From IMG/VR virus record IMGVR_UViG_3300017565_000006, positions 1 to 55,779 of that record: 55,779 nucleotides of DNA. The stretch is one strand, 5' to 3'. Shown in pieces: positions 29,979-48,553 of this stretch; position 1 is the first letter of the stretch, and the number at the start of each line of letters is the position of its first letter. A model generated the notes under the pieces. The model was given only the letters and a program-made list of their open reading frames with translations, made no database searches and was not told where the DNA came from. A program made the position numbers and the translations under genes. This DNA is from a virus (Duplodnaviria; Caudoviricetes).

Positions 29979-30047
29979 TGGAGTCAGCACACTTTTTGTT
30001 TGTTGGTTAGCGCATGTTTGCAAACCTCCATGCACGTTATTAGGCTT

Positions 30048-30317: not shown

Positions 30318-30517
30318 GATCGAACTACCTCATCCGGAAGACGGACAATGTGTGCATTGGCCAGTCCTGCGTGATCGCTGCGATAGGTCGAAACTTCGAT
30401 GATTGATAGCTGCGCGGCGTTTTCGATATCGTCGCAAAACGCAGGCCCATCCTTATAGTGATAGTCGCCAGTCCAATAGCGGTTATTGATCATTAGTGCA
30501 TAGCGTGGCGGTTTCAT
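30314..30517 (-). CDS. hypothetical protein
   Basis: AGGAG RBS. Confidence 0.6.
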   Translation of the reverse strand: MKPPRYALMINNRYWTGDYHYKDGPAFCDDIENAAQLSIIEVSTYRSDHAGLANAHIVRLPDEVVRS

Positions 30518-30543
30518 GGGTTTGCTCCTGGTTTGTGCGCGGA

Positions 30544-30708
30544 CTATCGCGCCACGCGGAGCTTGCCGAGGCCGCGACCGCCGTTCTTCAGCTGCCAGTT
30601 CAGCGACCAGCGCTTCGCCTCGCTGATCGACTTGAATTCCTGCACCGATCCGTCACGGGCCTGAATGAATCGGCCAGTGCGTACGTATTCAACTTTTTCG
30701 TTGTGCAT
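30544..30708 (-). CDS. 54-aa hypothetical protein (below the ORF-track cut-off)
   Basis: AGGAG RBS; MHNEKVEYVRTGRFIQARDGSVQEFKSISEAKRWS... Confidence 0.6.
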   Translation of the reverse strand: MHNEKVEYVRTGRFIQARDGSVQEFKSISEAKRWSLNWQLKNGGRGLGKLRVAR

Positions 30709-30910
30709 GTTTGCTCCTACTCAGGGTTTGATCATTTCGCGCGACGGGCGCGCAGGGTTTGTAACATCTCGCAGACGGTCGCAATGCAGTCCACATGCCA
30801 GCCGAGCATGCGGCAAAGCCTGCGGCGCTGGTGAAGGTGCAAGCGGCGGCGCTTTTCGCTGTTTTGCCATTGGCGGTAATGCTTTTCATCCTGCACGGTG
30901 TTGGCGCGCC

Positions 30911-31087
30911 TCATGACACGAACCCCAAGCGCGCCAGGGCGGCGCGAGCTTCGGCATGCGTCGCATACTCTTGAACGAAGCCAGCGCCATCGTTCCACGT
31001 GAATTCGATCAGCGCGTCGCCGGCCTGAAATTCCGTCAGCTTGGCGGAATCAGCGGAGCCCCAATAACGACCAATTGCATTATTCAT
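30911..31087 (-). CDS. hypothetical protein
   Basis: First gene after cassette 4. Confidence 0.6.
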   Translation of the reverse strand: MNNAIGRYWGSADSAKLTEFQAGDALIEFTWNDGAGFVQEYATHAEARAALARLGFVS

Positions 31088-31094
31088 CACGTTT

Positions 31095-31162
31095 TCCTTT
31101 CTGTCGGGCCACACTGCGCGGCCCGTGATTGGAATATTGCCCTTTTGCTTTTCTGATGTCAA
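31095..31162 (-). promoter_or_regulatory. sigma70-like promoter + stem-loop + SD cassette 4
   Basis: TTGACA-17-CAATAT, CACGG, hairpin 31105-31125, CAGAAAGGA. Confidence 0.7.
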
Positions 31163-31167
31163 TCGGG

Positions 31168-31791
31168 TTAAAAGCCAAAGTTTTTGAGGGCAGACGTGAA
31201 CGCGGCACGGTCTGTCTGGGCGCGCATGGGCATCACAAGCCCTACGGCAGTCGGGTCTGCGCCGACCGCGAGCGCAGCGCCGTGGCCGTTGTGGTAGAGC
31301 GAGGGCTTGTTTTTAACGCCTCCGATCAGCACAAACGCGGCTTGCAGCGGCGCCGTGAATTCCGCGTCAAATTGCACGGCTTCGGCGGAGAAAGTTTTCG
31401 GAACAACCCGTCTCCATTGAGGATAAGTACCAGATTCTTCAGGCCCGCCAACCCTAGACCCGTCATGACGGATCAAGTTTATGGAGCGGTCTGTGCGTGT
31501 GCCTGCGTCGATGCATACAACGACTGCAGAGTTCTTTCCTTTGTAAAACTTAAGAAGTTGTTCAATCATAATACGCGGCACAATGAACGGGCGAACGTTT
31601 TTAGGCATCTTAGGCAGCTCATGTTTGACAAAAAGCATTTTGTGGCCATCAGTCGCCACAAGCGCGTCGTGTTCGGTGTCGAAATAGACGCCATTCAGAT
31701 AAAAACGAACGTCGTTCTTACCTGCGATCAACAACAAAGCCTTAAGAACGTTTGTTTCAACGGCGGTGACATTAATCATTTGTTTGCTCAC
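31168..31791 (-). CDS. DNA polymerase III beta clamp-like protein (two-domain, truncated)
   Basis: DVRFYLNGVYF, VATDGHK, GTYPQWRRVVP, GLVMPMR match DnaN domains II-III. Confidence 0.8.
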   Translation of the reverse strand: MSKQMINVTAVETNVLKALLLIAGKNDVRFYLNGVYFDTEHDALVATDGHKMLFVKHELPKMPKNVRPFIVPRIMIEQLLKFYKGKNSAVVVCIDAGTRTDRSINLIRHDGSRVGGPEESGTYPQWRRVVPKTFSAEAVQFDAEFTAPLQAAFVLIGGVKNKPSLYHNGHGAALAVGADPTAVGLVMPMRAQTDRAAFTSALKNFGF

Positions 31792-31815
31792 AAAAATAAC
31801 GAGTCGGAAGGATGG

Positions 31816-32010
31816 TTACTGCGCGTCCTGCCAAGCCTTGTCTGCGGCAAGCTTCTCCTCACGGGCGCGAATCAAAGCGGCGTCAGTGAACTTGCTCGGC
31901 TGATAACGCATGTCACCAGCTTGCTTGCCGTACACGCGGACGAGTTCAGTGTGATATGCCTCATCAGCGTTGTATGCGTTCATCTGCAATTCGTATTTGT
32001 CCATCGTCAT
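31816..32010 (-). CDS. hypothetical protein
   Basis: AGAAAGGAG RBS. Confidence 0.65.
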   Translation of the reverse strand: MTMDKYELQMNAYNADEAYHTELVRVYGKQAGDMRYQPSKFTDAALIRAREEKLAADKAWQDAQ

Positions 32011-32025
32011 TCTCCTTTCTATCGA

Positions 32026-32199
32026 TCAACCAAGCTGGCGGAAAAACTCGATGCGCTCGGCGTCATTCAGACCGTAATCATCAGCGGCCTCGCACGCCAG
32101 CTCCAGCCATGTGCGCCCAGGACCTTCATTACTGCGCTTACGAAAAATTTCCGCTTTTGCGGACTCGATGCGAAGCTGTGAATCATTGTCCATCATCAT
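32026..32199 (-). CDS. hypothetical protein
   Basis: First gene after cassette 5. Confidence 0.6.
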   Translation of the reverse strand: MMMDNDSQLRIESAKAEIFRKRSNEGPGRTWLELACEAADDYGLNDAERIEFFRQLG

Positions 32200-32201
32200 T
32201 C

Positions 32202-32270
32202 TCCTTTCTGCCGGGCGAACCGTGAGTGAATAGTGCGCCGTTGGGCGCAATGAGTCAAGCATTAAAGCGA
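32202..32270 (-). promoter_or_regulatory. sigma70-like promoter + SD cassette 5 at the strand-divergence point
   Basis: TTGACT-17-CACTAT, CACGG, weak hairpin, CAGAAAGGA. Confidence 0.7.
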
Positions 32271-32347
32271 AAAAGTTTCGCCTGATGGACAAACTGCTGA
32301 TTTACGGCAATGCTTCCGGTCCCTTTGGGTGAAGTGATGGTGAGAAA

Positions 32348-33316
32348 ATGGCACGGCGAGAATGGCCAGCCGAGGCGCGAGCCTTTTTGAGCGCTTTAAG
32401 CGCAAATCTTGATGAAAAAGAAAGATTAATTACTTGCGGTGTGCTAGGCGATCCAGGCAAAGCCGCGTCGTCGCAATGGCGGCCGCGTCCCTGGACAGGC
32501 GATGCCGCATGGTGCTACCCCACCGGATGGAATGCGTATGTGACCGTTGGCGCGTTTTCTGTATCTCCCGATGGGAGCTACAGACGACGGGCCGCGAACT
32601 GCACCGGCGGCGTCGCGTTCATGGTCGACGACGTAGGGACGAAGGTCTCGCGCTCGCGCGTCGAACACACCCCACCCTCCGCAATCGTTGAAACATCACG
32701 CGGCAACGAGCAATGGTGGTACTTCCTTGACAAAGTAGAGCGGGACACCGAGCGCTTTGACGCACTGATTCGCGCTTTCATCGATACGGTACTCGGCGGC
32801 GAGGACCCGGGCATGGCCAGCGTAACGCGCGTCGGGCGCATTCCTGGATTCAGCAACAACAAAGCCGCGTATGGCCCGGTCGGTGTCGATGTGAAGCTCT
32901 TATCACTGAGTGACAAGCGCTTCAGCGTCGAAGAGCTGCTGTCTTTGTATGGCCTGTCGCTCGTTGGTCGGCGGCGCGTACTGCCTCGCATCCTGCCAGA
33001 CGATGCGGAAGAACGAATCAAGGCGCACTACCTTGTGCGCAAGTTTCTGCGTCTTAGCGGCATGCTCAAGCGCTCAACGCCAGATCCATCCGGATGGCTG
33101 GAAATACAATGCCCTTGGGTGGACGGGCACACCGCAGGCGTCGACAACGGCGCCGCGATCCGTGAACCGGATCAAGAAAATGGATTCTATGGCGGGTTCC
33201 GTTGTCATCATGGCTCATGCGCTAAGCGAGGGTGGCGCGAGCTTACAGATTGGATTGCTGACGAAGCTTCCGAGAGATTAGAACAAGCAAACGCGGGGAC
33301 TATTGACCGTGGCTGA
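32348..33316 (+). CDS. RepB'-like (AEP superfamily) DNA primase with C-terminal Zn domain
   Basis: FMVDDVG, PSAIVETSRGNEQWWY, RVGRIPG; CPW..H...FRCHHGSC. Confidence 0.82.
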   Translation: MARREWPAEARAFLSALSANLDEKERLITCGVLGDPGKAASSQWRPRPWTGDAAWCYPTGWNAYVTVGAFSVSPDGSYRRRAANCTGGVAFMVDDVGTKVSRSRVEHTPPSAIVETSRGNEQWWYFLDKVERDTERFDALIRAFIDTVLGGEDPGMASVTRVGRIPGFSNNKAAYGPVGVDVKLLSLSDKRFSVEELLSLYGLSLVGRRRVLPRILPDDAEERIKAHYLVRKFLRLSGMLKRSTPDPSGWLEIQCPWVDGHTAGVDNGAAIREPDQENGFYGGFRCHHGSCAKRGWRELTDWIADEASERLEQANAGTIDRG

Positions 33317-34844
33317 AGAAGTACAGATGGATAGCGAGCTGTCGCCCGAAGAGGCGCAAGCGCTTAAAGCATTACGTCGACTCGCCGAACTGCAACAAAC
33401 AACCAGCACTCGGCGTACCTACCGACACAACGATTTTCTTTATGACATTTCGCAGGATGCTTTTTGGTGTAGACCATTAAGCGCCATGATTTCAGCGAAA
33501 GGCGTCAACTCTATGGTGCCGATTGAACATTGGAGATTGCCCAAGCTGACCTCCGAAGGTCGGCAACCACCGCCCGTGCCGCCAGCCAAAGACCTGATGC
33601 GAATCGAAGCGGGAACGGTTGTTGAAGGGTCAACATGGCTGCCGGGGCAAGGCGAGTTGATAGAGGATCTATATGCGTCGAAAGATGGATTCTTCCCAAT
33701 TGAAGGGGTGCAAATGTTTAATACGTTTCGACCAGGACCAGTTGCCGATGTATCGCTCGCGCCCCAAGCAATGCCTTGGGTGGAGCACATCAAGCGACTG
33801 TGGCCAGAAACAATTGAGCATGAGTATTTTTTCGACTACTGCGCCCACATGATTCAGAAGCCTGAAGAGAAGGCGAACGGCGCCATTGTCGTCAGCGGAA
33901 AACAGGGCATTGGCAAGGATGCGGCGCTATTGCCCGTTCGCATGGCAGTAGGTGAATGGAACACAAGAAATATTTCCCCTGATCATCTGTTCCAGCAATT
34001 CAACCCCTGGGTCGAGTGCGTCATGCTCACGATTGACGAAGTGAGACCAATGTCAGATGACCATAAGGCAACGTCGCTATATGACATCCTCAAATCATTG
34101 ACCGTCACGCCACCGAACACCATCGCGCTGAATGATAAGCGGGACAAATTGCGATACATCGCAAACGTGTTGCGATTGTTCCTAACAACCAATGACCGGT
34201 TAGCGCTCTACATCCCTCCAGAAGATCGGCGCTTGATGATGATGCACAGCGAATTGCCGCAGCGCTGGCATCGCGAGACTGATCCTGACTACTTCGTCAA
34301 GCTCTTCAATTGGCTGACCGCAGGGGGCTATGCCGCTGTTGCTGGATGGCTCGCGGCCCGCGATATCTCGAAATTCAATCCAAAGGGTGAGGTGCCGAAA
34401 ACATCGACATGGGCAGAAATCTCGCAGCGCTGGGACGCGCCCGAGGATGAATTGACGGCGGCGCTCGATTCGCTCGGCAATCCTGACTGTCTGTTCTCCA
34501 CCGAACTGATAGAAAACCAATTCGATGGCGTCGAAGAGCTGCGAAAGCTCATGAAGGGTCGCGGCTTCGTATTCCGCATGCAGCAAGCTGGTTACAAAGT
34601 CGTGCCATTGCCCGAGGGCAAAACGCGATGGCGCAAAGGTGTTAACGGATGGGAGTTCAAATCCTTCAAAGCGTACATTAAAGAAAATTTATGTTTGGGC
34701 GCCGCGCAAGCGCTCGAAAGGGTCGAAGAGCGGCTGCAATTGCGGGTTGATGCCGGGCCCAAGGGCAAGGTACCGAAAGGGCCGCGCCTAAGCGTGGTAG
34801 GCGAAAGCATTAACGCAGTTGCGGGAAAAGATGAAGGCTTCTAA
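33303..34844 (+). CDS. SF3 / D5-like (DUF5906) replicative helicase
   Basis: Walker A GKQGIGKD, Walker B LTIDE, motif C FLTTN, EDRR. Confidence 0.85.
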   Translation: MTVAEEVQMDSELSPEEAQALKALRRLAELQQTTSTRRTYRHNDFLYDISQDAFWCRPLSAMISAKGVNSMVPIEHWRLPKLTSEGRQPPPVPPAKDLMRIEAGTVVEGSTWLPGQGELIEDLYASKDGFFPIEGVQMFNTFRPGPVADVSLAPQAMPWVEHIKRLWPETIEHEYFFDYCAHMIQKPEEKANGAIVVSGKQGIGKDAALLPVRMAVGEWNTRNISPDHLFQQFNPWVECVMLTIDEVRPMSDDHKATSLYDILKSLTVTPPNTIALNDKRDKLRYIANVLRLFLTTNDRLALYIPPEDRRLMMMHSELPQRWHRETDPDYFVKLFNWLTAGGYAAVAGWLAARDISKFNPKGEVPKTSTWAEISQRWDAPEDELTAALDSLGNPDCLFSTELIENQFDGVEELRKLMKGRGFVFRMQQAGYKVVPLPEGKTRWRKGVNGWEFKSFKAYIKENLCLGAAQALERVEERLQLRVDAGPKGKVPKGPRLSVVGESINAVAGKDEGF

Positions 34845-34879
34845 GGGAATTCCTTAGCGCTTTATTGAGGAAATGGATT

Positions 34880-35210
34880 AAAGAGAGGCCAACACGGCCT
34901 CTCGACGCCCGACAGGCGCCCAAGAGTTGGGCGGCGCGCAAGTTATTGAAGGTAAAAGAAAAAAGAGGGCCGCGGGGGTCGAAAGCGCCCGACGCCCGAC
35001 TATCTCCGTATTACCAGCTTTTTCTTTCCCCTTACTCCCATATTTACCCTATATATATTTTCTTACTTACTTATATTAGTTAGGCGAGTTAGGCGATATA
35101 TATAAAAGAGGGTTAGAAATAGAGTGAAAATCAATGACTTGCGAGAGCGCCCAACTGGGCGCCTGACATGGGATCTAGTTGGGCGCATGTCGGCGAGTTA
35201 GGCGCAGCCA
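34880..35210. other. putative replication origin or packaging region (iterated 9-mers, AT-rich core, IHF site)
   Basis: AGTT(A/G)GGCG repeats in both orientations; AT-rich tract ~35010-35130; AATCAATGACTTG (35129-35141) fits WATCAANNNNTTR. Confidence 0.55.
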
Positions 35211-35315
35211 TTTCGCGGCTTTGCCGAGGTGCGTTTTTGACTCGCGGCGTCCGCGCTGACATGATCGCGGCGTTGGAAACTGAAGATATCTCTTGACAAA
35301 CGGTCGACAATCGTG

Positions 35316-35687
35316 ATGGACCAAGCAGACAAACCAGCCAAGCGCCCACGTCGAGGGGGACGAGCAAAGGGCACCCCCAATAAAACCACGCGCGAGGTGC
35401 GTGCGCTGGCGCAGGAATACGGGCCGTCGGCAATCAAGGTGCTTGCGGAGTTGATGCTGGATGACGAGCAGCTCGGTGCCACCCGCCGAGCAGCGGCCGT
35501 CGATTTGCTGGATCGCGGTTATGGGAAGCCGGCCAGCGTGCTGCAGGTCGATGACGGAGAAGGCGGCACAGCGCTTCCGTCCTTCATTGGGCTGGTAGGT
35601 ATGACCGCCGAAGATGTACGCCAGGAACGCGAGAGGCGCGCCCTGACGGCGAATTCGGACGCAGACGCAGCCGAAGATGCAACTTAG
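35316..35687 (+). CDS. terminase small subunit
   Basis: GGRAKGTPNK, AAVDLLDRGYGKP; immediately upstream of TerL. Confidence 0.8.
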   Translation: MDQADKPAKRPRRGGRAKGTPNKTTREVRALAQEYGPSAIKVLAELMLDDEQLGATRRAAAVDLLDRGYGKPASVLQVDDGEGGTALPSFIGLVGMTAEDVRQERERRALTANSDADAAEDAT

Positions 35688-37005
35688 ACCGGTTGACGCC
35701 TACGGGCGGCGTACGCTTCCGTCGCCCGATCACGCGATTCCCTTGCCCGATAAGCTGGTCCCGGCATTCTTGCCCCCGGCGCGCTATCGGTGTAGCCACG
35801 GCGGCCGCGGCAGTGCCAAAACTCGATCATTTGCGCTTATGACGGCGGTGCGCGCCGCCATGTTTGCCGAGATGGGTGTGTCTGGCGTCGTACTCTGCGG
35901 CCGCGAGTACATGAATTCCCTCGAAGAGTCATCCATGGAGGAAGTGAAACAGGCGATCCGCTCGTTGCCGTGGCTCAATAGATATTTCGATATCGGCGAG
36001 AAATACATCAGAACAAAGAATCGCCGAGTCTCGTACGTCTTTGCTGGTTTGCGTAAATCACTCGACTCGATCAAGTCAAAGGCCCGCATTCTCATTGCGT
36101 GGATTGACGAAGCGGAAAGCGTGAGTGAAGCGGGCCTGATCAAATTGTTCCCAACCGTGCGCGAGGAAGGCATGGTAAATGGCGTGCCATGGAATTCAGA
36201 GATCTGGCTCACATGGAACCCTGAGTTAGAGGGCTCGCCCGTCGATAAACGTTTCAGGCAAAACTGTCCGCATAATGCAATCGTTGTAGAAATGAACTAC
36301 ACCGATAACCCGTGGTTCCCGCAGGTTTTGGACGAAGAGCGGTTGAATGATCGCGAGGTAATGGATGACGCGACGTATGCATGGGTGTGGGAAGGCGCCT
36401 ATCGTAAGAACAGCGACGCTCAAATCCTGAATGGCAAATATCGCGTCATGGACTTTGACCGCGATGCATTGGAAGGCGACGGACCATACTTCGGCGTTGA
36501 CTGGGGCTTTTCTCAGGATCCGACTGCAGGACTCAAGCTGCGTATCAATGACCTACGTTTGTATGTTTGCTATGAGGCGGGCAAGGTCGGCCTGGAGTTG
36601 GATGATATTGCTGGCTATCTAATCGACCGCATTCCAGGCATTGAGAATGCCGTTGTCCGAGCAGACAACGCGCGCCCCGAAACAATCTCTCACGTCAAGA
36701 GCAAAGGCTTTCCACCGAACAGGCGCAATCTTCCTCGCATCATTGCCGCGAACAAGTGGCCCGGATCTGTGGAAGACGGTATTGCACATCTGCGCTCATA
36801 CAAAGAAATCATTGTGCATCCGGAATGCACTAAGTTTTTGTTCGAGGCGCGACGATACAGTTACAAGGTCGATAGGCTGACGGGTGAAGTCACAACCGAC
36901 ATTATCGACAAGCATAACCACTACATTGACGCCAGCCGATATGCGCTCGATCCGCTCGTGAAACGCAAATCGCCCGGTGGCATTCTGCTTCCAAATCGAA
37001 GGTAA
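35677..37005 (+). CDS. terL: terminase large subunit (PBSX/SPP1-like)
   Basis: HGGRGSAKT, WIDEAE, TWNP, NYTDNPWFP, GVDWGFSQDP, NHYIDASRYA. Confidence 0.95.
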   Translation: MQLRPVDAYGRRTLPSPDHAIPLPDKLVPAFLPPARYRCSHGGRGSAKTRSFALMTAVRAAMFAEMGVSGVVLCGREYMNSLEESSMEEVKQAIRSLPWLNRYFDIGEKYIRTKNRRVSYVFAGLRKSLDSIKSKARILIAWIDEAESVSEAGLIKLFPTVREEGMVNGVPWNSEIWLTWNPELEGSPVDKRFRQNCPHNAIVVEMNYTDNPWFPQVLDEERLNDREVMDDATYAWVWEGAYRKNSDAQILNGKYRVMDFDRDALEGDGPYFGVDWGFSQDPTAGLKLRINDLRLYVCYEAGKVGLELDDIAGYLIDRIPGIENAVVRADNARPETISHVKSKGFPPNRRNLPRIIAANKWPGSVEDGIAHLRSYKEIIVHPECTKFLFEARRYSYKVDRLTGEVTTDIIDKHNHYIDASRYALDPLVKRKSPGGILLPNRR

Positions 37006-37011
37006 ACCGCT

Positions 37012-38376
37012 ATGACAAAACCATCAAAGTTACAACTGGCGGTGAATCACGCCGTACAGGACTATAACAATCGCTATCGTGCATGGGCCGCCGCTAACCG
37101 TGACTTTGGCACGGGTGGCTTAGACGGCAAGCGCCCGCGCGCGTGGTGTGAGTACGGGTTCAAAGAGCACTTAGAGTTTGCAGACTTTTACAACGCCTAT
37201 CGTCGACGCGGAATTGCATTCGGCGCAGTCGATAAGCTGGTCAACGCATGCTGGTCGACGTTCCCGTGGTTGATTGAAGGCGATCCCGATGAAGAGTCGG
37301 ACACGGAAAGCGCATGGGAAAAGCAAGCCTCGAAAATGTTTCGTCCGCTCTTCTGGAGTGCATTCGAGACGGCCGACCGATACAGGCTCGCCGCTCGATA
37401 CTCGGCGCTTATCCTTCACTTCGCCGATAACCTGAATTGGGATCAGCCTGTCAGGCGCAATTCCAAGCTGATCAAAATGACGCCCGTGTGGCAAAGCGCT
37501 CTGAAGCCAACGAAGTTCAACGAGGAACGCAGCTCGATTGATTTCGGTGAGCCCACAGAATGGCATTACACCGAGTCAGCCAAGGAAGGGTCTACGCAGG
37601 CGCTTACGGTTCACGCGGATCGCGTTTTCATCCTGGGCGATTGGCGCGCCGGTGCGCTCGGCTTCCTTGAGCCCGTGTTCAACAATCTGGTGAGCATGGA
37701 AAAGGTAGAAGGCGGAAGCGGTGAATCATTCCTGAAAAACGCAGCTCGGCAATTATCCGTTTCCTTCGATAAAGAAATCGATTTGTCAAGCCTCGCGCAG
37801 ATGTATGGAGTTTCTCTAAACGAGCTTCACGAAAAATTTAACGAAGCGACGCGAGAGCTGAATCGCGGTAATGACGTGATGCTCATCAACCAGGGCGCCA
37901 CCGTCAATCCGCTCGTGTCCGATGTGCCCGACCCAACACCCACATTCAACGTCAATTTGCAAGTCGTGGCGTGCGGCCTTGACATTCCTAGCAAGATCCT
38001 GGTCGGCATGCAGACCGGCGAACGTGCATCGAGCGAGGATCAGAAATACTTCGACAAACGCTGTCAGGCGCGCCGGGTCAAGCAATTGTCGTTCGAGGTC
38101 GAGAACCTCATGCGCCGATTGATGCGGCTCGGGACGCTTACGCCGAAGGACGAAATCAGCGTCATGTGGACTGACCTGACGGAACAGACGGGCGCCGATA
38201 AGCTGGCCAATGCAAAGGTCATGAGCGAAATCAACAGCGCAAATCAGGCGAGCGGCGTTGAAATCTTCGATGGGAATGAAATCCGAGTTGCCGCGGGCTT
38301 TGAGCCGACAACGCTGAAGCCGCTTCCGGACGATGAACCTGTCGACGACAACATCACCGGGGGCGACGAGGAATAA
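37012..38376 (+). CDS. portal protein (DUF1073-like)
   Basis: Follows TerL; AWCEYG, KVEGGSGESFLKNAARQL, IPSKILVGMQTGERAS. Confidence 0.85.
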   Translation: MTKPSKLQLAVNHAVQDYNNRYRAWAAANRDFGTGGLDGKRPRAWCEYGFKEHLEFADFYNAYRRRGIAFGAVDKLVNACWSTFPWLIEGDPDEESDTESAWEKQASKMFRPLFWSAFETADRYRLAARYSALILHFADNLNWDQPVRRNSKLIKMTPVWQSALKPTKFNEERSSIDFGEPTEWHYTESAKEGSTQALTVHADRVFILGDWRAGALGFLEPVFNNLVSMEKVEGGSGESFLKNAARQLSVSFDKEIDLSSLAQMYGVSLNELHEKFNEATRELNRGNDVMLINQGATVNPLVSDVPDPTPTFNVNLQVVACGLDIPSKILVGMQTGERASSEDQKYFDKRCQARRVKQLSFEVENLMRRLMRLGTLTPKDEISVMWTDLTEQTGADKLANAKVMSEINSANQASGVEIFDGNEIRVAAGFEPTTLKPLPDDEPVDDNITGGDEE

Positions 38377-38378
38377 TC

Positions 38379-39278
38379 ATGGCTCGCATGGCGATCATTC
38401 CGGGCACGGCTGAAGACCCGACTGCGCTCGATGCAAAGGTCAGGCTTGCCGCCAAGGATTTCGCTCGTCGCTTCCGGGAGATCGGGCGCCGATACCGGAA
38501 GCGGCTCGAAATGATCCCCGCTTATCCCGTGGTCAACGCCCGCTACACGTTCCTGCTCGATTCGGTCTCGATGCCGGCGCTGCTCGAAGATCTGGGACGG
38601 ATCGTTGACAGCATCCTCTTGGAAGGGGGCGATCAAAATCTGTGGCTTTACGAGGTGCATGTGGCCGTGGCCGAGCGGCGCGGGGTGGCGCAGGCGTTCG
38701 CCAACCTCTCCGCTCAATCACCAGCCTACAAGGCGGAAAAGCGGACACTGGAAAACGTACTGCGCTCGGATCCCGTCCGCCGGAGGATGGCCCTCACAAA
38801 GACGCGCGTTTTCGAGGAAATGAAAGGGCTGGTCGGGGAAGCAAAGACCGATTTGGCCCGGGTACTGACCGAGGGCATCGGCCGTGGCAAAAATCCATTG
38901 GAGATCGGACGCGAAATTGCCGAAAGGCTTCCCGTGAATGTTTCACGTGGAACAAAAATCGCTCGAACTGAAATGACGATGGCGCTAAAACGCGCAAAAT
39001 GGGATGAAGCAGAAGAGGCAAAAGAGCAATTTGGACTGCGGTCGATGGAAATGCACCTATCAGCGCTGTCCCCGACCACGCGCCCGACACACGCAGAACG
39101 GCACGCAAAACTCTATACCGTGGCTCAGGTTCGGGATTGGTGGAGCAAGGATGCGAACGCGATCAACTGCAAATGCAGCACCACGACAGTGCTCGTCGAT
39201 GCCAAGGGCAAACCCCTAGTGCCAGCGATTGTCGACCGTGCAAAACGCGCATTGCGCAATAAAGCAAAACGTGCTTAG
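38379..39278 (+). CDS. head morphogenesis protein (SPP1 gp7 / Mu F-like)
   Basis: KIARTE, TTRPTHAERH, INCKC. Confidence 0.88.
   Translation: MARMAIIPGTAEDPTALDAKVRLAAKDFARRFREIGRRYRKRLEMIPAYPVVNARYTFLLDSVSMPALLEDLGRIVDSILLEGGDQNLWLYEVHVAVAERRGVAQAFANLSAQSPAYKAEKRTLENVLRSDPVRRRMALTKTRVFEEMKGLVGEAKTDLARVLTEGIGRGKNPLEIGREIAERLPVNVSRGTKIARTEMTMALKRAKWDEAEEAKEQFGLRSMEMHLSALSPTTRPTHAERHAKLYTVAQVRDWWSKDANAINCKCSTTTVLVDAKGKPLVPAIVDRAKRALRNKAKRA
38939..38954. promoter_or_regulatory. parS: chromosomal-type parS site
   Basis: TGTTTCACGTGGAACA; the reverse complement TGTTCCACGTGAAACA matches the TGTTNCACGTGAAACA consensus exactly. Confidence 0.75.
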
Positions 39279-39356
39279 CCTGGATCATTCAAATTTTTGA
39301 ATTTGCTTTTTAGAAAAAGTCAATAAATAATCCACCCCGCTCGCCTCGGAGGGATA

Positions 39357-40637
39357 ATGCCTATCCACGTTAATGTAACTGCCAAAGTCAATAGCAAATC
39401 GATCCGACGCGAGATCCACAACGGTCGCTCTCACTGGGTCATCCCCTCCTATACCTTGCCTTTTGACGTTGTGATGAACGGCGTCATGTACCCCAAGGCT
39501 GAAGTCGAAAAGCATTTCAGCGGATTGGAGGGCACCTTGGCGCCCTTCGGTCATCCGACCGTGAACGGCCAACACGTTTCCGCTTTTTCGCCTGAAGGCA
39601 TCAACGCTTTCCACGTGGGCGCCTGGAATCGAAACGTGAAGCTTGCCGGCACGCGCGTGTACGCGGAAAAGTGGCTTGACGTGGACGTGGCCAACCGCAC
39701 CGAAAACGGCAAACGCCTGATTGAGCGCCTTGAAGCGCTGGAGCGTGGTGACGATGTACCGCCGATTCATAGCAGTGTGGCGCTTTTCATTGAACGCATG
39801 GAAGTTGCGGACAAGGATCGCGAAAAGCTTGGATATGAAGCTGTCGCCAAGATTCATCAAATGGACCATGATGCTATTTTGCTTGATGAAGTGGGGGCGG
39901 CTACTCCTGAGCAGGGCGTTGGATTGATGGTCAACGCGGATGACGCGCAAAACATCAAGGTGAATTCCGGCGCGCTCGTTGGCGAGTCTTTCCGTGAACG
40001 CGAGAAACGTTTGTCTCAAGCCGTTTATGAAACATTCGGCAAGGGCGAGGATAACTATGCGTGGGTCGCGGACTTCACAACCGATCAAGTCGTTGTCGTG
40101 TCAAAGGACGGCACAAAGGTATATGGATATGCTGTCGACAATGGCATCGTAAGTTTCGACGGCGAAGGCGTGCCGGTCGAACGACAGGAAACATGGGTGG
40201 CACGTCTTCCCGTGGTCAATAAGATTGTTTCTTTTTTCAAAAACCGTCAGGCGCGGCCTGATTTTTCGGAGGTATCCACTATGGACGAGAAAGAGAAGGC
40301 CGCATTGGTCGAAGCGGTCAACGCAAGTGTCGCCAGCACGCTGCAAGGTGTTTTGGCACCCATCACCGAGCGCTTGAGCGCGCTTGAAACCAACCAGAAG
40401 ACGATCACTGAATCCGTGACCGCCAATGCTCGCGCCGTCGAAGCGGAAAAGCGTGCCGTTGTCGCAGCGAAGCTCGGTGAAGTCGTCGCCAATGCGCTGA
40501 GCGGCGAAGCGCTCGATAAGGCCCATGAACAGTGTCTGACTGCGAAGGGCATCGGCCAGGGCAGCACCGCGCAGGAAAAGCCCGCGCTGGCGCCGAACGC
40601 CGATGAAGTCGCGAACTATTTCGGGAGCAACAAGTAA
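39357..40637 (+). CDS. capsid maturation protease/scaffold
   Basis: Position; VMNG..YP, APFGHP, DHDAILLDEVGAATPEQGVG; helical C-terminal scaffold region. Confidence 0.8.
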   Translation: MPIHVNVTAKVNSKSIRREIHNGRSHWVIPSYTLPFDVVMNGVMYPKAEVEKHFSGLEGTLAPFGHPTVNGQHVSAFSPEGINAFHVGAWNRNVKLAGTRVYAEKWLDVDVANRTENGKRLIERLEALERGDDVPPIHSSVALFIERMEVADKDREKLGYEAVAKIHQMDHDAILLDEVGAATPEQGVGLMVNADDAQNIKVNSGALVGESFREREKRLSQAVYETFGKGEDNYAWVADFTTDQVVVVSKDGTKVYGYAVDNGIVSFDGEGVPVERQETWVARLPVVNKIVSFFKNRQARPDFSEVSTMDEKEKAALVEAVNASVASTLQGVLAPITERLSALETNQKTITESVTANARAVEAEKRAVVAAKLGEVVANALSGEALDKAHEQCLTAKGIGQGSTAQEKPALAPNADEVANYFGSNK

Positions 40638-41095
40638 TGAGCCGTTATCGTCGCGTCAATATTGACGGCAAGTCGCTCTACAAAACTGAGACTCGCCGCA
40701 TGGCCGCCGCACTTCTGCCCGGCACCTTCATTGTGATCAATGGCAATGACCAGTTTGCGCAGGCAACCGCGCTCACCGGTCGCATTTACGTGCTCGATGC
40801 CGCGCTGTCGCAGGGGCTCACCATTCGGGACGCCGTTCCCCAAGGTGATTCCGGCGAAGGCAATTATGTGGAAGAGGGTCGCGAGCTGGCCATTCTTTGC
40901 CCGGCTGGCACGTATGCCAAAGACACCCCCATCAAGCTGGGCACGCAGGGACGCGGCGCTATCGCTGCGAACGATGGCGACTCGGTCATTGGCTATTCGC
41001 AGGATGACGCTGTGATTCCGAACGGTGAGACGGATTTCATCCGCGTGCGTATGCGCGTGGGCACCGTCGTGCACCCTGAAGCGGAAGCGGGCTAA
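40637..41095 (+). CDS. head decoration protein
   Basis: 152 aa between scaffold and MCP; RYRRVNIDG. Confidence 0.7.
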   Translation: MSRYRRVNIDGKSLYKTETRRMAAALLPGTFIVINGNDQFAQATALTGRIYVLDAALSQGLTIRDAVPQGDSGEGNYVEEGRELAILCPAGTYAKDTPIKLGTQGRGAIAANDGDSVIGYSQDDAVIPNGETDFIRVRMRVGTVVHPEAEAG

Positions 41096-41119
41096 CCGGC
41101 GGGCACTAGGAGAAAACAA

Positions 41120-42223
41120 ATGTATTTCACTGCAAATTCACTTCAGCACCGCACTGTTCGCCAACACTGGGATCATCTGTGGGCTCAGCGTAACCTGTTC
41201 AACGTGAATCACTCGGCGATGGTGGAGCGCATGCGCTCTCACATGACGCCGGAAATGCTCGCAGCAAACGCTGCGGCAGGGTTCACTCGTGATTTCTGGA
41301 TGGACATCGACCGGAGCATCATCGCTTCGCGTGAAACGGTCGAAGGCATGGAGATCGTTGACGATCTGATGGGCATTCAGACCACGTTGCCCATCGGCAA
41401 GACCGCCAAGCTTTATAACTTGGCCAATGCCGATATCGCCGATGACGTTTCCATCAGCATCGACGGTCAGGCGCCGTACAGCTTCGATCACACCGAGTTC
41501 GATTCGGACGGTGATCCGATTCCGGTATTCACTGCCGGCTTCGGCGCGAACTGGCGCGATGTGCAGGGTTTCAACACGGTGGGTATCGATATCATTGCGG
41601 ATTCGCAGAACGCGAAAATGCGCAAATTCAATACGCGCCTCGTTGATTACATCCTGAACGGCAGTGACCGCATTCAGGTCGCAACGTTCCCGGGCCAGGG
41701 TCTGAAGAATCACCGCAACACGGTCAAGATGGACCTGGGCGCGGGCGGCGCAAACATCGATCTGACAACGGCCAGCTTCCCCGAGCTGCTCGCTTTCTTC
41801 ACGACTGGCCTGTTTGGTCAGACGCTGCGCGCGAACCGTGTCACGGCATACGATGTCATGTGGGTGTCGCATGAAATCGCCGCGAATCTGGCGCAGCCGT
41901 ATCTGATCACGCTGAACCAGGGCACGAACGCCGCCATCGGTGGCACGGTGCAGGATGCACTCGCACGCTATCTGAACGTCAAGAGCATTCGCCCGACGTA
42001 CGCGCTGACCGGCAATGAGTTCTTGGCATACGAGCGCCGCCGCGACGTTCTGTCGCCGCTCGTTGGCATGACAACGGGTGTGGTTCCTCTGCCGCGCTTC
42101 ATGCCGCAGGAAAACTACAATTTCCAAATCATGGCTGCTATCGGTCTGCAGGTGAAACGTAACGACAACGGGCGCGGTGGCGTCCTGTATGCGTCCGAAA
42201 TCACCGAAGTGGACGAGGAATAA
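41120..42223 (+). CDS. major capsid protein
   Basis: 367 aa, AGGAG RBS, strong codon bias; DGDPIPVF, GLKNHRNT, PLVGMTTG. Confidence 0.85.
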   Translation: MYFTANSLQHRTVRQHWDHLWAQRNLFNVNHSAMVERMRSHMTPEMLAANAAAGFTRDFWMDIDRSIIASRETVEGMEIVDDLMGIQTTLPIGKTAKLYNLANADIADDVSISIDGQAPYSFDHTEFDSDGDPIPVFTAGFGANWRDVQGFNTVGIDIIADSQNAKMRKFNTRLVDYILNGSDRIQVATFPGQGLKNHRNTVKMDLGAGGANIDLTTASFPELLAFFTTGLFGQTLRANRVTAYDVMWVSHEIAANLAQPYLITLNQGTNAAIGGTVQDALARYLNVKSIRPTYALTGNEFLAYERRRDVLSPLVGMTTGVVPLPRFMPQENYNFQIMAAIGLQVKRNDNGRGGVLYASEITEVDEE

Positions 42224-42225
42224 TC

Positions 42226-42474
42226 ATGGCCAAGTATCGAGTCCTTCGCCCCTGGGTGGGCGTGAAGAAGCACGACATTGTCGAGCTGTCGAAACTCAAC
42301 CCCGCGATCAAGGCGCAGGTTGAGCTGGTCGGCGATGACGAGGAAGTGACGAAGCAAGCCGAGCCGGCAAAGCGTCGTGGGCGCCCTCCGGGCAGTGGCA
42401 AAAAGCTGACTGTCAATCCCGCTAGTGGGGAAGGCAGCAAGGAAGATGGCGACGGCGATAACACCGAAGCCTAA
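42226..42474 (+). CDS. small capsid-associated protein with AT-hook-like motif
   Basis: YRVLRPWVGVK; KRRGRPP. Confidence 0.65.
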   Translation: MAKYRVLRPWVGVKKHDIVELSKLNPAIKAQVELVGDDEEVTKQAEPAKRRGRPPGSGKKLTVNPASGEGSKEDGDGDNTEA

Positions 42475-42490
42475 CAAATAGTCATAAGTC

Positions 42491-42512
42491 GCGCGCCCAA
42501 GGACGGGCGCGT
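42491..42512 (+). promoter_or_regulatory. hairpin with C-AAGGAC-G loop (CsrA/RsmA-type site or terminator)
   Basis: CGCGCCC-AAGGAC-GGGCGCG. Confidence 0.5.
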
Positions 42513-42535
42513 GCAACCTCCTGGGAGCGTCCGAT

Positions 42536-44212
42536 ATGTCTAGTCTTACTGCACGCCGACAGGCGGCCAATACAAGTTTTGATCCTGCCGGCACGTCGCT
42601 CTCTGCGACCAACGTGCAAGGCGCAATCGAAGAAATCCTACAGTCAGGAATCGCCCCCGCTGTTGTTCGCGCAACGAACGTAATTCGCGGCGGCTTGAAC
42701 GGCATTCAATCTGGTGTGCTTGATGACATCGCCGCCGATGCAAATCGGCAGGCAATCCAGGCTCAAATTGACAATGCCGTCACTTTCGGAAAGATCGTAG
42801 AGGGCGATACGAGCAACGGCGGCGAGTTCCAGATTGCCGGCGGGCCTATCACCGTTCCAGGGTCGGCGACCGCTTTCACGTGGCGCGCGCGGCCGACTTT
42901 CACATTCCGCCAGCGCTCTAACAATATGCCAGTGCTGCAACTAGGTGTTGTTGGCTCAGGCACAACCGCGCTCATGTTCGATTGGGACGGCTGTACGCTG
43001 CACTACCAGAACGATCAGCCCGTAGCTGAGAACCCCAATTCGGCAGCGCTCGTATTCGGCAATGCATGGCTATCGCGCTTTGCAAACATTCGTGTATGCA
43101 ACACCATTTCCAGCACTCGGCCCGCCGATTGCGTGAAGGTCGCACAAGGCGCGGCCTTCTTTTCCAACAAGGTCAGCAATCTGTTTTGTTTCCAGCCGTA
43201 TCGATACGCGCTCAACATCGCGAACTTCGGCACGGAAAACCAATGGGACAATATCTATCTCTCAGGCGTCGGCCCGTCCGGTTCTGCGCAATCGCTTTCC
43301 GCGCTTCTCATGTGGGAAGTCGGAAGCGGTCAACAGACGCATGGAACGGTGTTCAACGGCGTTAATTTCGAGTGGGCGATTACCAACAACATCATGCGTA
43401 TCAACAATGCGCGCGGTGTCGTTTTCAATTCGCCGCACATTGAGCAGTGCCGCTTGTCCGGCGCCAACGCGGCAGTCATTCGCAACACCATTTCGCAATT
43501 GTTGTTCAATGGCGGTTGCATCCTTGATATTCACATTCTCAGCTCTTTGGTCGCGGACAATAACCCGTCTATCGTGCGTCATTTCAACAATGGACGAACG
43601 CAATGGAACGCTTTTTGGTGGTTGTCGAATCAGGCGAGCTATGTCAATCGTCCGTTCTACATGCATTTTCAGGCGGGCAACGAAGGGTTCAACACGCAGC
43701 CGGGCAAGCTGTTGCTGTTCCATCCCCAGTGGATCGACGGCGGCAGTTCAACGTCATTGCGCGACAATCTTCGCATTGATCGCACCATGGGCGGAGTTGA
43801 TATGTATGGTGGCGACTGGGGGACGATGTACACCCAAGCCGCTACCGAAGTTCATTCAGGCGCCGGCATGACTCGCGTTATTGAGGGCGATCTGCGTGTC
43901 GATGTGAACAAAACGCTTTATGGCTCTCAGATTGAGTCCGCGCGCGTCACCATTCCCGGCACGCTGAGCGCCAATATCGCAATCACGCTCTCTGATCGCA
44001 TGGGCCCACCCGATTCACGGTGGGGCAATGCCATTGTTCCCGATGGTGCGATTGTGACCGTGTTGCGCGGTGGCACGACTGTCATGAATTCGGAAATCAA
44101 GAACCATGACGGGACCACGATCACAACTATCGGCGCCGGTCTCGAAAGTCGCCAATTGAACTTTCAAAAGGTCGATGGCGACTGGACTCTGCTTTCTACT
44201 TCTACAGGCTAA
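42536..44212 (+). CDS. fibre/spike protein with parallel beta-helix (pectate-lyase-like)
   Basis: N-terminal SATNVQGAIEEI fibre motif; ANRQAIQAQID start of a pectate-lyase-3-like domain; Asn-rich beta repeats. Confidence 0.65.
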   Translation: MSSLTARRQAANTSFDPAGTSLSATNVQGAIEEILQSGIAPAVVRATNVIRGGLNGIQSGVLDDIAADANRQAIQAQIDNAVTFGKIVEGDTSNGGEFQIAGGPITVPGSATAFTWRARPTFTFRQRSNNMPVLQLGVVGSGTTALMFDWDGCTLHYQNDQPVAENPNSAALVFGNAWLSRFANIRVCNTISSTRPADCVKVAQGAAFFSNKVSNLFCFQPYRYALNIANFGTENQWDNIYLSGVGPSGSAQSLSALLMWEVGSGQQTHGTVFNGVNFEWAITNNIMRINNARGVVFNSPHIEQCRLSGANAAVIRNTISQLLFNGGCILDIHILSSLVADNNPSIVRHFNNGRTQWNAFWWLSNQASYVNRPFYMHFQAGNEGFNTQPGKLLLFHPQWIDGGSSTSLRDNLRIDRTMGGVDMYGGDWGTMYTQAATEVHSGAGMTRVIEGDLRVDVNKTLYGSQIESARVTIPGTLSANIAITLSDRMGPPDSRWGNAIVPDGAIVTVLRGGTTVMNSEIKNHDGTTITTIGAGLESRQLNFQKVDGDWTLLSTSTG

Positions 44213-44222
44213 GGAAACAAAC

Positions 44223-44468
44223 ATGCACCCCGATGCAATTGACGCAAGCTTTTTGTCACCGACGCGCAAGCGACAGGCCGTTGAAGCGGGTTCCATCATC
44301 AAATATCCGTGGGCAGGCAACGCCAAAACGTTGGCCATGAACGCGAGCGATATCATGGGTGAATCTTCGACGCCGTACGTTGCCGAGCTGGAATTGAGCC
44401 CGGATGCGGAAACGGATGTAGACGCCGTTCACACCGCGTACATCGTGCCCGTCACTCTGGCCGATTAA
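44223..44468 (+). CDS. hypothetical structural protein
   Basis: AAGGA RBS; 81 aa. Confidence 0.6.
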   Translation: MHPDAIDASFLSPTRKRQAVEAGSIIKYPWAGNAKTLAMNASDIMGESSTPYVAELELSPDAETDVDAVHTAYIVPVTLAD

Positions 44469-44483
44469 TCGGAGGATACAAAC

Positions 44484-45926
44484 ATGCCTTTGATTCTAGT
44501 CGGTCGATCTGTGCCGCCCCCGGGCCCCGATCCGGATCCAGATCCGGAGTTGCCGCCGACAACTCATTGGGTGACTGCCGATGCAACCGGATCCGGCGAC
44601 GGTTCGCAGGCGTCGCCCTTTACGCTATTGCAGGCGTGCGCAGCTGCTCAGCCCGATTGGGTGGTGGAAATTGGCCCCGGTGTTCACATTGGGCCTAATC
44701 GCGGCAGTCGTTTTGAACCGACATTCAGGATTGCTGCGCAAGGCTCCGAGGAGCATCCGATTATTTTCTTCGCGCGTAATTACGCTGCGTTGAATGAGTC
44801 GGGGCGCACGATCCTGCAGCACACTGGCACGGTTCAGGGTAGCGGGTGCCCGGTTCTTGGCTTAAGTACCGGTCATCGTTGGTACGGCCCGTACATCAAT
44901 GAAGACAACGCACCGAGCACCCCCGACACCGGGCCCGTTGTGATTAGTGGCCAACACACCCGCCTAGGTTACGCGAAAATCTTGCGCGGAACGGAATCAT
45001 GGCCGCAATCAGAGAACAACCACGCGGCAATTCGTTATGAAGGCGTGGCATGTCGCCACCACATTGTTCATGACTGTTGGATTGAAGGGTACAACGGCGT
45101 CGGCGCGAGCGGATCGCAACAGGCTATTCAGTTGTTCAGCGTGAACAACAACCCAGCGGAAACCACCGGGCTTGTCACGGTTGAAAATTGCTACTTCTAC
45201 GACAACCAATTTGCGTTGACGGTCAAGGGCGCTGGCGCCGCGCGTCCGATCAATGGCGGCATAATTTTCCGCCGCAACATTGTTCGCACAACCTCGCGCG
45301 GAAACTCCGGCGGCGTCGCATTCATGGACACGAGCGCAGAGCTTGGTCGCAATCAGGTGTATCAAAACATTTTTGTTGGCGGTAACGCTGCCGTGCGCAC
45401 GATGAATCAGGCTGGCCATCCGGTTACAGACATCGACATCATCAACAATACCGCGATCAACCTTGCTCCCGAGGGCGATGATTTTTACGGCTTCCATTCG
45501 GATCGCTACGAAATGGATATTGGTTCGGGCTGGCGCATCCACAACAACGTGAATGTCGGGACTGCGGTGCCGTTCTTCCGTTCGCCTTTCGGCGTGGATA
45601 GCGACGCAGCGGTCACTTCGCGCTCTCACAACATCAGCCAGTCTTCTACCTGGGGCTATGTCGAAGGGCTTGGGGGCGGCGTTCAAACGCTTGCGCAGTG
45701 GGTCTCACGCGGTAAGGATGGCAACAGTCTAGTAGCGAACGCAATGTTGCAGTCCACGACTTGGGGCAACGCGAACCTGGGCAAGCTGCAGGCCGGTTCC
45801 CCTGCGCTGAATTCTGGTGTCGATATTCTGAACTTGCTGGGCAATGGCACTAGTGCGTCGATCCATAGGGGCGCGTTCATCCTGCCCGATCAAACAGACG
45901 TAATTGGCATCAGGCCGCTCGCTTAA
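44484..45926 (+). CDS. right-handed beta-helix protein (putative polysaccharide lyase or binding protein)
   Basis: PD-repeat linker; GSGDGSQASPF-T-QA DUF1565-like start; ENCYFYDN, RRNIV, NNT, HNNV repeats; LQAGSPALNSG...GAF terminal motif. Confidence 0.75.
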   Translation: MPLILVGRSVPPPGPDPDPDPELPPTTHWVTADATGSGDGSQASPFTLLQACAAAQPDWVVEIGPGVHIGPNRGSRFEPTFRIAAQGSEEHPIIFFARNYAALNESGRTILQHTGTVQGSGCPVLGLSTGHRWYGPYINEDNAPSTPDTGPVVISGQHTRLGYAKILRGTESWPQSENNHAAIRYEGVACRHHIVHDCWIEGYNGVGASGSQQAIQLFSVNNNPAETTGLVTVENCYFYDNQFALTVKGAGAARPINGGIIFRRNIVRTTSRGNSGGVAFMDTSAELGRNQVYQNIFVGGNAAVRTMNQAGHPVTDIDIINNTAINLAPEGDDFYGFHSDRYEMDIGSGWRIHNNVNVGTAVPFFRSPFGVDSDAAVTSRSHNISQSSTWGYVEGLGGGVQTLAQWVSRGKDGNSLVANAMLQSTTWGNANLGKLQAGSPALNSGVDILNLLGNGTSASIHRGAFILPDQTDVIGIRPLA

Positions 45927-45938
45927 AGGAAAAGAGAT

Positions 45939-46925
45939 ATGGCACTCGCCTCCAGCACATTTTCCATTGATTTTTCGGGGTTGCCAAACACAAACCCCTA
46001 TACCAATGCAAACATCACCAACGTAAACGGAACCGCTCAAATTGCTGGCGGTATTTTTCGTCCTAACACGTTGGCAGGAAACACGACGCCGCAGCGTTTT
46101 GTATATAACGGCGAAACGAGTGGCGATAATTGGCGCGTGAGCATGCGCCTTGGCGCAAGCGGTAACTACAACGCGAACGGCGTCGGCTTCATTGATCCTG
46201 CAACGGGCAACGGCTACGGCGTACAGCTGACCTGGAATAGCCACGTCAATATCAATCGATATGACGGTAATACTATCGTCGCAATTTCTGCGGGCGCAAT
46301 CGAGATCAATCCGGAAGGCTTGAGCGACGATGCAATCATCCATCTCGATTTTAATCGGGCGACGGGCGCATTGCTGGTCCTGTACGAAGATCCCAACGCA
46401 ACTGTCCCGGTAACTACGCCGACAGCAACCGAGTGTGACGCTACAGATACGACGTACGCCGCTACGCTGAAGCCTGCAATGATCTTTCTTTGCGAGGATC
46501 AGTCGGCAGGCGCCTTTGTTATCGATCAATGGGGCGCTGACGCAGGCGGTGGCGGTGGTGGCGGCACAGCTACAAAGCTCGGCATTGCTAGCCAACCGGG
46601 AAACACGGTAGTCGGCGAGCAAATGAGTTCACTAGTTATTTCGGCGCTGACCGATGATGACGAAGTCGACGCAAGTTTTATTGGCAATGCGACCGTCGCG
46701 ATTCAGACGGGCACCGGCACGCTGACCGGCACGCTTACGCGCCCCTTCGTGAGCGGATATGCGTTATTCGGTGACTTGGCGGTCAATACCCTGAATACTG
46801 GCTTAGTGTTGCGCGCTTCGTCGGACGGATTAACATCGATTGACACCGCGCCTTTCGATATCATCGCAGGCGGCGGAAGCGGTGGAAGTGGCGGACGTTC
46901 GCCGATTGGCAGCCTGATCGTTTAA
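45939..46925 (+). CDS. beta-sandwich (lectin-like) + Ig-like structural protein
   Basis: Beta-rich N-domain, poly-Gly linker, ATKLGIASQP...GYALFGDL..N..G.VLRAS Ig-like domain. Confidence 0.6.
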   Translation: MALASSTFSIDFSGLPNTNPYTNANITNVNGTAQIAGGIFRPNTLAGNTTPQRFVYNGETSGDNWRVSMRLGASGNYNANGVGFIDPATGNGYGVQLTWNSHVNINRYDGNTIVAISAGAIEINPEGLSDDAIIHLDFNRATGALLVLYEDPNATVPVTTPTATECDATDTTYAATLKPAMIFLCEDQSAGAFVIDQWGADAGGGGGGGTATKLGIASQPGNTVVGEQMSSLVISALTDDDEVDASFIGNATVAIQTGTGTLTGTLTRPFVSGYALFGDLAVNTLNTGLVLRASSDGLTSIDTAPFDIIAGGGSGGSGGRSPIGSLIV

Positions 46926-46937
46926 GGAAAATCAGAC

Positions 46938-48551: not shown

Positions 48552-48553
48552 CC

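Follow-up and report, generated by a model that had tools for sequence, protein, structure and literature searches.

A parS-type site inside a head morphogenesis gene

The DNA analyzed here (the window) is IMG/VR virus record IMGVR_UViG_3300017565_000006, a complete genome of 55,779 bp with direct terminal repeats. Its gene at 38379-39278 (plus strand; 299 amino acids) encodes a head morphogenesis protein of the Mu-F / SPP1-gp7 type, and inside this gene, at 38939-38954, lies an exact match to parS, the DNA site of the chromosomal segregation protein ParB. The gene is identified by a match to Phage_Mu_F (PF04233; residues 159-268, E = 5.6e-10) and by membership in the PHROG family for head morphogenesis (phrog_758; E = 2.7e-104), and it sits between the portal gene and the capsid genes. 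With moderate confidence, we propose that the 16-mer is a selected recruitment site for the ParB of the host's chromosome.

The site is TGTTTCACGTGGAACA (reverse complement TGTTCCACGTGAAACA), and we matched it to the pattern TGTTNCACGTGAAACA. There are 0 mismatches on the minus strand, with agreement at 15 of the 15 fixed positions, and 1 mismatch on the plus strand. The letters of the window around the site are ...cccgtgaaTGTTTCACGTGGAACAaaaatc..., which is to say ...gtgaaTGTTTCACGTGGAACAaaaatc... The N position of the site is C, a pyrimidine, and C sites form one of two variants that predominate among parS in nature and in viruses. The site is a hybrid of one TGTTTCAC half-site and one GTGGAACA half-site with flanks A..A, and it is one mismatch away from either pure palindrome (TGTTTCACGTGAAACA or TGTTCCACGTGGAACA). 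It is a near-perfect palindrome, with a CACGTG core.

An exact parS is expected 7e-5 times per window if the bases are independent and identically distributed, 1.2e-4 times under a Markov-1 model, and 1.1e-4 times under a Markov-3 model. An earlier note on this DNA, made from the letters alone, had described a perfect parS with a chance of about 1e-4 per genome, and both statements hold. With up to 2 mismatches allowed, there are 3 matches in the window, 2 of which are the same site on both strands; the mean in shuffled sequences was 0.12, and 0 of 100 shuffles reached 3. The remaining match is a weak parS-like 16-mer at 41196-41211 (plus strand; TGTTCAACGTGAATCA), with 2 mismatches, one per arm. 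It lies in the major capsid gene, 2.2 kb downstream of the exact site. This weak match is probably due to chance.

The earlier note also read the site as (AA)T GTT TCA CGT GGA ACA and considered its A/T-ending codons to be odd for this gene, and we agree. The frame is AAT GTT TCA CGT GGA ACA AAA, which encodes N187-V-S-R-G-T-K193. All five site codons end in A or T, and all five are minority codons in their families (GTT 0.27, TCA 0.12, CGT 0.15, GGA 0.12, and ACA 0.16), while the GC content at third codon positions is 0.645 for this gene and 0.625 for the genome. (Codon usage was computed from 26 open reading frames, or ORFs, with 11,250 codons of the window.) Given the peptide NVSRGT, the probability of these codons is 4e-5, and the site's peptide is present only once in the window's 26 ORFs. 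Codons 187-193 are a variable stretch directly before a conserved IARTE motif. In an alignment of 22 family members, no part of the Mu-F domain is less conserved than these residues, and among them R190 alone is invariant.

Host-type parS in viral contigs

We scanned the viral contigs of IMG/VR for exact matches to parS and to control 16-mers that keep its base composition and near-palindromy. The parS pattern with N was found in at least 118 stretches, as compared to 20 in the whole collection for the same pattern read backwards. The window's exact variant (TGTTCCACGTGAAACA) was also found in at least 118 stretches, versus 2 stretches for its reversed control and 10 for its everted control (the same two 8-mers with their order swapped; one of the 10 is an artefact of two abutting parS). 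This is at least a 12- to 59-fold excess of the window's 16-mer over its controls. Among the 118 stretches that came first, an unbiased set, T occupied the N position in 83, C did so in 32, and A or G in 5. The flanks A...T, which extend the palindrome, were seen at 86 of 270 sites, and the window's flanks (A...A) came second, at 31. (Any extrapolation to "thousands" of sites assumes that all of the scans read the collection in the same order.)

The genomes that carry these sites seldom encode a ParB of their own. ParB_N was found in 2 of 50 carrier records, in 1 of 36 high-GC or SLT-lineage records (a weak match, below the cut-off; the SLT lineage is described below), and in 1 of 12 control records. 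An integrase is present in 2, and a ParA in 1, of the 25 carriers with a completeness of 80% or more. The Pfam-matching ORFs that overlap the sites, taken from 110 cluster representatives, are mostly phage genes: the phi29-type polymerase (DNA_pol_B_2), connector, gp16, and gp9, and then terminases, portals, tail proteins, and two Mu-F proteins. Of 110 sites, 74 are in one reading frame, 29 in another, and 7 in the third, and further sites lie in intergenic DNA.

When 199 loci were collapsed by shared proteins within +/-2 kb, 99 lineages resulted, including two large lineages (one of 39, and one of 37 that is phi29-like by its Pfam families), a microvirus-sized lineage (5), and 80 singletons. 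In the phi29-like lineage, the sites are in many different genes, so functional sites are not always positionally stable. The C variant, which is the window's, accounts for 69 lineages, of which 53 are singletons; at a GC content of 0.5 or above, it accounts for 34 lineages, of which 27 are singletons, while the controls have 2-3 matches in that GC range. Seven of the C-variant singletons with GC >= 0.5 are at least 90% complete (G036, G052, G053, G057, G058, G064, and G084); integrase, ParA, and ParB are all missing from five of the seven. In contrast, of the reversed-C and everted-C control records, completeness was consulted for 10 (there are 11 control loci), and none of these 10 is near-complete. 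For all of these records, we took the completeness from CheckV and the label "viral" as given.

Two entries of this census stood out. The first is the microvirus-sized lineage (L015, L053, L161, L198, and L222; 4.5-6 kb, with the three that were checked rated as 99-100% complete), in which the exact parS is mostly outside of convincing ORFs. The use of host parS by small single-stranded DNA phages would be unexpected. The second is G064, a record of 116,662 bases with 12 parS within about 4 kb (locus L163, at 8906-12906), 11 of which are exact C-variants. G064 also has ParA (AAA_31, E = 6e-63) and an integrase, with no ParB_N above the cut-off. Its appearance is that of an element of plasmid-like or integrative type, with an array of centromere sites, that was filed as viral.

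Conservation could be tested directly in the gene for a giant virion protein whose N-terminal part is an SLT domain. Two loci from the census (L110 and L148) have parS at the same aligned place in this protein, in a region that is only about 32% identical. We used two peptides that are unrelated to the site, [EN]PQQP[QV]M and AAMRDVN, to fetch homologues, which gave 47 loci. An exact parS is present in 36 of the 47 (for example, at 2031-2046 of L360). The motif LPPSLPPM was matched in 32 loci, and in 31 of them parS lies at most 120 nt upstream of it; the 32nd is a spurious match to the motif. All 26 distinct sequences agree at the 15 fixed bases of parS (100% conserved), and N alone varies (T or C). 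In the adjacent LPPSLPPM, which is itself strongly conserved, the third positions of codons are 0.42-0.92 conserved, and upstream bases are 0.35-0.92 conserved, with one invariant position. The frame within parS encodes V-S/P-R-E-T. Since the fixed bases are invariant while neighboring synonymous positions vary, we conclude from this alignment that parS in the SLT lineage is under selection at the DNA level, inside a structural gene. The records of this lineage (loci L110, L148, and L360-L405) are 61.5-62.2 kb (the genomes are about 60 kb), and ParB_N was not found in the two records that we checked. No cultured phage matched the giant protein beyond the SLT domain.

We considered two other sources for the excess of parS in viral contigs. 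A protein motif was rejected: the sites are in three frames and in intergenic DNA, they are spread over at least 99 lineages, and the synonymous positions inside parS are invariant in the SLT lineage. Contamination by host DNA was judged to be insufficient, as candidate-host genomes of 2.4-5.8 Mb have just 1-2 exact sites, the Pfam-matching ORFs over the sites are mostly phage genes, and the excess is also seen in near-complete records; contamination may contribute among the short fragments. By these comparisons, host-type parS in viral genomes that lack ParB is a real, selected class that is wider than phi29.

The phage and its probable host

The window encodes a siphovirus with a lambda-like tail: besides a terminase and the portal, it has a J-type central fibre (1618-5178), a major tail protein (50171-51163), and a tape measure protein (51901-54822). 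The replication genes include a DnaE-type Pol III alpha subunit (13512-16328, minus strand), a helicase, an RNase_T-type (DEDDh) exonuclease that is separate from the polymerase, a RepB-type primase, and a DUF5906 helicase. This replication set (11505-19039 on the minus strand and 32348-34844 on the plus strand) is unusual for a lambda-tailed siphovirus. A megablast search of positions 30000-50000 against 50,697 phage records found no relative at the DNA level, and all 341 protein-level matches in the phage collection are below 60% identity. The replication set and the lack of a DNA-level relative in that collection suggest a new genus or higher taxon.

The earlier note reported no ParA, ParB, integrase, or repressor. 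Our comparison of the complete genome to the profiles for ParB_N, CbiA, AAA_31, Phage_integrase, HTH_3, and Peptidase_S24 gave 0 matches at E <= 0.1, which bears out that report for these families. There are also no par genes beside 38939-38954, and the site is in a late gene of the phage instead of being near an origin and beside parAB.

The phage is present in soil metagenomes (two samples, from two studies). In the phage collection, its relatives by gp7 reach 53% identity (Pseudomonas JBD44-like, ES18, and CobraSix), and the relatives of its polymerase, at 46-47% identity, are from Luteibacter, Xanthomonas, and Serratia phages. The J protein is 42-48% identical to prophage proteins from assemblies of Stenotrophomonas, Lysobacter, Xanthomonas, Cupriavidus, and Oxalobacteraceae. 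These relatives of the J protein point to a soil beta- or gamma-proteobacterium as the probable host. Of the 6 genomes with J relatives (Xanthomonadales and Burkholderiales), 4 have exact parS, with 1-2 copies in genomes of 2.4-5.8 Mb. The type is TGTTTCACGTGAAACA in the Burkholderiales (Cupriavidus and Oxalobacteraceae) and TGTTCCACGTGGAACA in Lysobacter.

Several other parts of the genome stood out. Between the capsid and tail genes, at 42536-48551 (plus strand), are four consecutive large ORFs (558, 480, 328, and 537 amino acids) with no PHROG match, and many of the early ORFs also have no family assignment. ARAGORN predicts a 99-nt tRNA-Ser(GGA) at 10223-10321 (minus strand), inside the ORF at 9659-10564 (phrog_2402); this prediction is doubtful, as Rfam finds no tRNA at the gathering threshold anywhere in the window. 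In the early region, at 25225-26750 (minus strand), a DUF932 protein adjoins a weak match to a reprolysin-like metallopeptidase (below the Pfam cut-offs).

Two other Phage_Mu_F genes from the census also have the window's variant of parS, in the VSRGT frame (2374-3267 of L150, minus strand, with the site after the domain; and 4280-5203 of L211, plus strand, with the site near the N-terminus). These two sites are at non-homologous places, and we rejected a single fixed position in Mu-F genes to which parS would be attracted. The hidden Markov model of the window's family misses both genes. By polymerase, none of the complete phages with parS is related to the window: 2 of 24 match, at 36-38% identity.

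Proposed recruitment of host ParB and the alternatives

If the 16-mer is a recruitment site, then host ParB should bind it. We infer this binding from the identity of the site to chromosomal parS and from data for Pseudomonas aeruginosa, whose ParB is described as binding parS with one mismatch only slightly less well than perfect sites (PMC4368675). The same report states that one parS is enough for segregation in P. aeruginosa and that one can suffice for formation of a ParB complex (PMC4368675). The chromosomal parS of proteobacteria (parS1-4 of P. aeruginosa, and those of Burkholderiales and Xanthomonadales) are of the same 16-bp class as the window's site and are built from the same two types of half-site. 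They differ in their setting, as chromosomal parS are near oriC and beside parAB, while the window's site is in a late gene of a phage without par genes. As part of our proposal, selection would have acted on the DNA, not on the protein, in a tolerant stretch of the head gene; we consider this to be somewhat more likely than coincidence.

The closest precedent is the virulent Bacillus phage phi29 (with its relatives), which the earlier note had also named. Phi29 is reported to have five parS, and Spo0J helps to move its genome into the prespore (PMC2731898). Both phi29 and the window lack ParA and ParB and have host-type parS inside genes, and the window also lacks an integrase. The proposed use is alike as well: the phage genome would be hitched to the segregation machinery of the host during a non-lytic interlude. 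However, phi29 has five sites in a protein-primed genome of about 19 kb, while the window has one exact site in a siphovirus-type genome of 55.8 kb. Also, phi29 infects a spore-former, and its gain is entrapment in the spore, aided by Spo0A boxes, while the relatives of the window infect Gram-negative hosts and no spore is expected.

The plasmid-prophages with parABS systems (P1, N15, and those of mycobacteriophages) are another kind of precedent, in that a centromere-like site aids extrachromosomal inheritance. These phages encode their own ParA and ParB and have their own parS, while the window has no match to the ParA or ParB families in its complete genome and has the consensus parS of the host. 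Besides the phi29 work, our full-text literature searches turned up ParB-only staphylococcal phages, but no account of a virulent phage of a Gram-negative host with host-type parS.

A plausible sequence of events can be built from the established biology of ParB and from the phi29 precedent. After injection, dimers of host ParB would recognize the site at 38939-38954, load as CTP-dependent clamps, and spread over the neighboring phage DNA. The phage genome, which would not be integrated, would thereby be tied to the ParA/ParB machinery that handles the host's origin, and possibly to SMC. The most likely pay-off would be that the phage genome is positioned and inherited in soil cells that grow slowly or starve. 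Such a carrier state, or pseudolysogeny, would be analogous to the Spo0J-dependent capture of phi29 into spores. A second possibility is that the phage, once replicated, would titrate ParB away from the host's origin. Extra copies of parS can perturb origin segregation.

Recruitment of host ParB, as suggested by the earlier note, is made plausible by the excess of parS in viral contigs and by the conservation of the site in the SLT lineage. It is not helped by conservation at the locus itself or by the number of sites, and these are among several observations that weigh against it. First, the site is not kept in relatives of this phage. The earlier note had suggested aligning the gp7-like gene from related phages and asking if the 16-mer is conserved at synonymous positions. 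The closest gp7 relatives have NTARGAR (P0002, known from a Logan contig; 71% identity) and SANRGVR (64% identity) at this place, that is, TARGA and ANRGV instead of VSRGT. A peptide that is compatible with parS (V[SP]R[EG]T, FHV[KE], or CFTWN) was found, anywhere in the gene, in 0 of 21 aligned relatives and in 0 of the 119 listed gp7 relatives; among the best 120 homologues, the window's own protein alone has one. Because the VSRGT peptide is not kept, the test of synonymous conservation is not applicable to this site. The earlier note had also suggested scanning related genomes for parS. With up to 1 mismatch allowed, parS is absent from the whole genomes of the 3 IMG/VR relatives that we found through gp7 (47-51% identity only) and from the 5 cultured phages that share the DnaE-type polymerase (Pluto, XcP1, MATE2, JSF39, and WTB). 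These 3 + 5 relatives are distant, with 45-53% protein identity, and some have other lifestyles, so this comparison is a weak one. On this evidence the site is lineage-specific, and within the window's gp7 family it is unique to one genome. In contrast, the parS of the SLT lineage, which is also of the host type and in a structural gene, is kept in 31 of 32 loci down to about 32% identity. The second soil sample covers 38639-39729 with 0 differences, at the site and in the rest of the gene alike, so it gives no information about selection at the site.

Second, the site is single in the genome, and the weak match at 41196-41211 is the only addition. Matching to TGTTYCACGTGRAACA with as many as 3 mismatches gave 2 sites, versus a mean of 0.55 in shuffled sequences, and 10 of 100 shuffles reached 2. 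An excess of half-sites in the window was looked for and not found: GTTTCAC occurs 7 times with 7.2 expected, and GTTCCAC occurs 7 times with 5.4 expected. Third, the census itself has weaknesses. Its counts are lower bounds (at least 118) and the controls are few. The R-variants of parS alone are found in at least 118 stretches, so part of the background is perhaps higher than the two controls imply; 54 of the 118 listed R-variant loci share proteins with Y-variant lineages. Short "viral" contigs of low completeness may hold host DNA. Finally, chance matches concentrate among sites without a counterpart in relatives, and the window's site is of this kind.

These observations could instead mean that drift in a variable loop of the head gene produced the 16-mer, with no role under selection, in which case host ParB might bind it with negligible effect during a lytic infection. 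We think that such a coincidence is quite possible, if somewhat doubtful. Besides the lone site without an excess of half-sites or degenerate sites, and its absence from 119 gp7 relatives and from 8 of 8 genomes of distant relatives, the controls show that 2-10 chance matches per variant do exist in IMG/VR, and all chance matches belong to the class of sites that relatives lack, as does the window's. Furthermore, this site was picked out of a screen of very many windows for many motifs, and simple arithmetic puts the chance number of imperfect 16-bp palindromes in 56 kb at about 20. On the other side, the expectation for this particular 16-mer is about 1e-4 per genome, and it is lower still when the codons are counted (the peptide occurs once in 26 ORFs, with P = 4e-5 for its codons). 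The same 16-mer is at least 12- to 59-fold over its controls in viral contigs, with 27 singleton lineages at GC >= 0.5 versus 2-3 control matches, and with at least 7 near-complete high-GC phage genomes versus 0 of 10 for the reversed-C and everted-C control records. For the sub-class to which the window belongs (complete phages with GC >= 0.5 and the C variant), about 0.2-2 chance matches are expected in the collection, based on the control counts times the share of records that are complete (roughly 10-20%). At least 8 are seen, including the window, so chance would account for about a quarter of them at most. Were the site a coincidence, the window would be a novel siphovirus of an ordinary kind, and the result of the census would stand alone.

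It is improbable that the palindrome was selected for another role, such as binding by a phage-encoded protein or another DNA-binding protein of the host, a hairpin in RNA or DNA, or a defence or counter-defence interaction with the site as target or decoy: the near-perfect palindrome with its CACGTG core would fit such a role, and the four large ORFs at 42536-48551 and the many early ORFs without a family leave room for an unrecognized DNA-binding protein, but the full 16 bp of parS is matched and not just a palindrome, no promoter-like or terminator-like site, Rfam match, or longer inverted repeat was found at 38939-38954, the stem in the RNA form would be only 6 bp (from reading the sequence), and the excess in the database is specific to the Y-variants of parS and is extended as the parS-type A..T palindrome.

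Returning to the recruitment of host ParB, we more tentatively suggest that host-type parS may be a widespread feature, selected at the DNA level, of phages that lack ParB, and that the window's site may be one instance of it. Phages of ParB-bearing hosts, including Gram-negative hosts, would then routinely borrow the ParB-CTP clamp, and perhaps the loading of SMC, to position, segregate, or shelter their unintegrated genomes. This suggestion is based on the at least 99 protein-level lineages, which include the phi29-like lineage, the microvirus-sized lineage, the SLT lineage with its genomes of about 60 kb, and several complete high-GC tailed phages. The census suggests that the phenomenon is much broader than one published family.

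If the window's site does recruit host ParB, then an apparently virulent soil phage with Gram-negative-type relatives would be using the trick of phi29 without spores. There would also be a simple DNA signature for the capacity of "virulent" phages to enter a carrier or pseudolysogenic state and to persist in non-growing hosts. This would bear on how "lytic" phages survive in soil, on judgments about the safety of phages for therapy, and on the biology of ParB.

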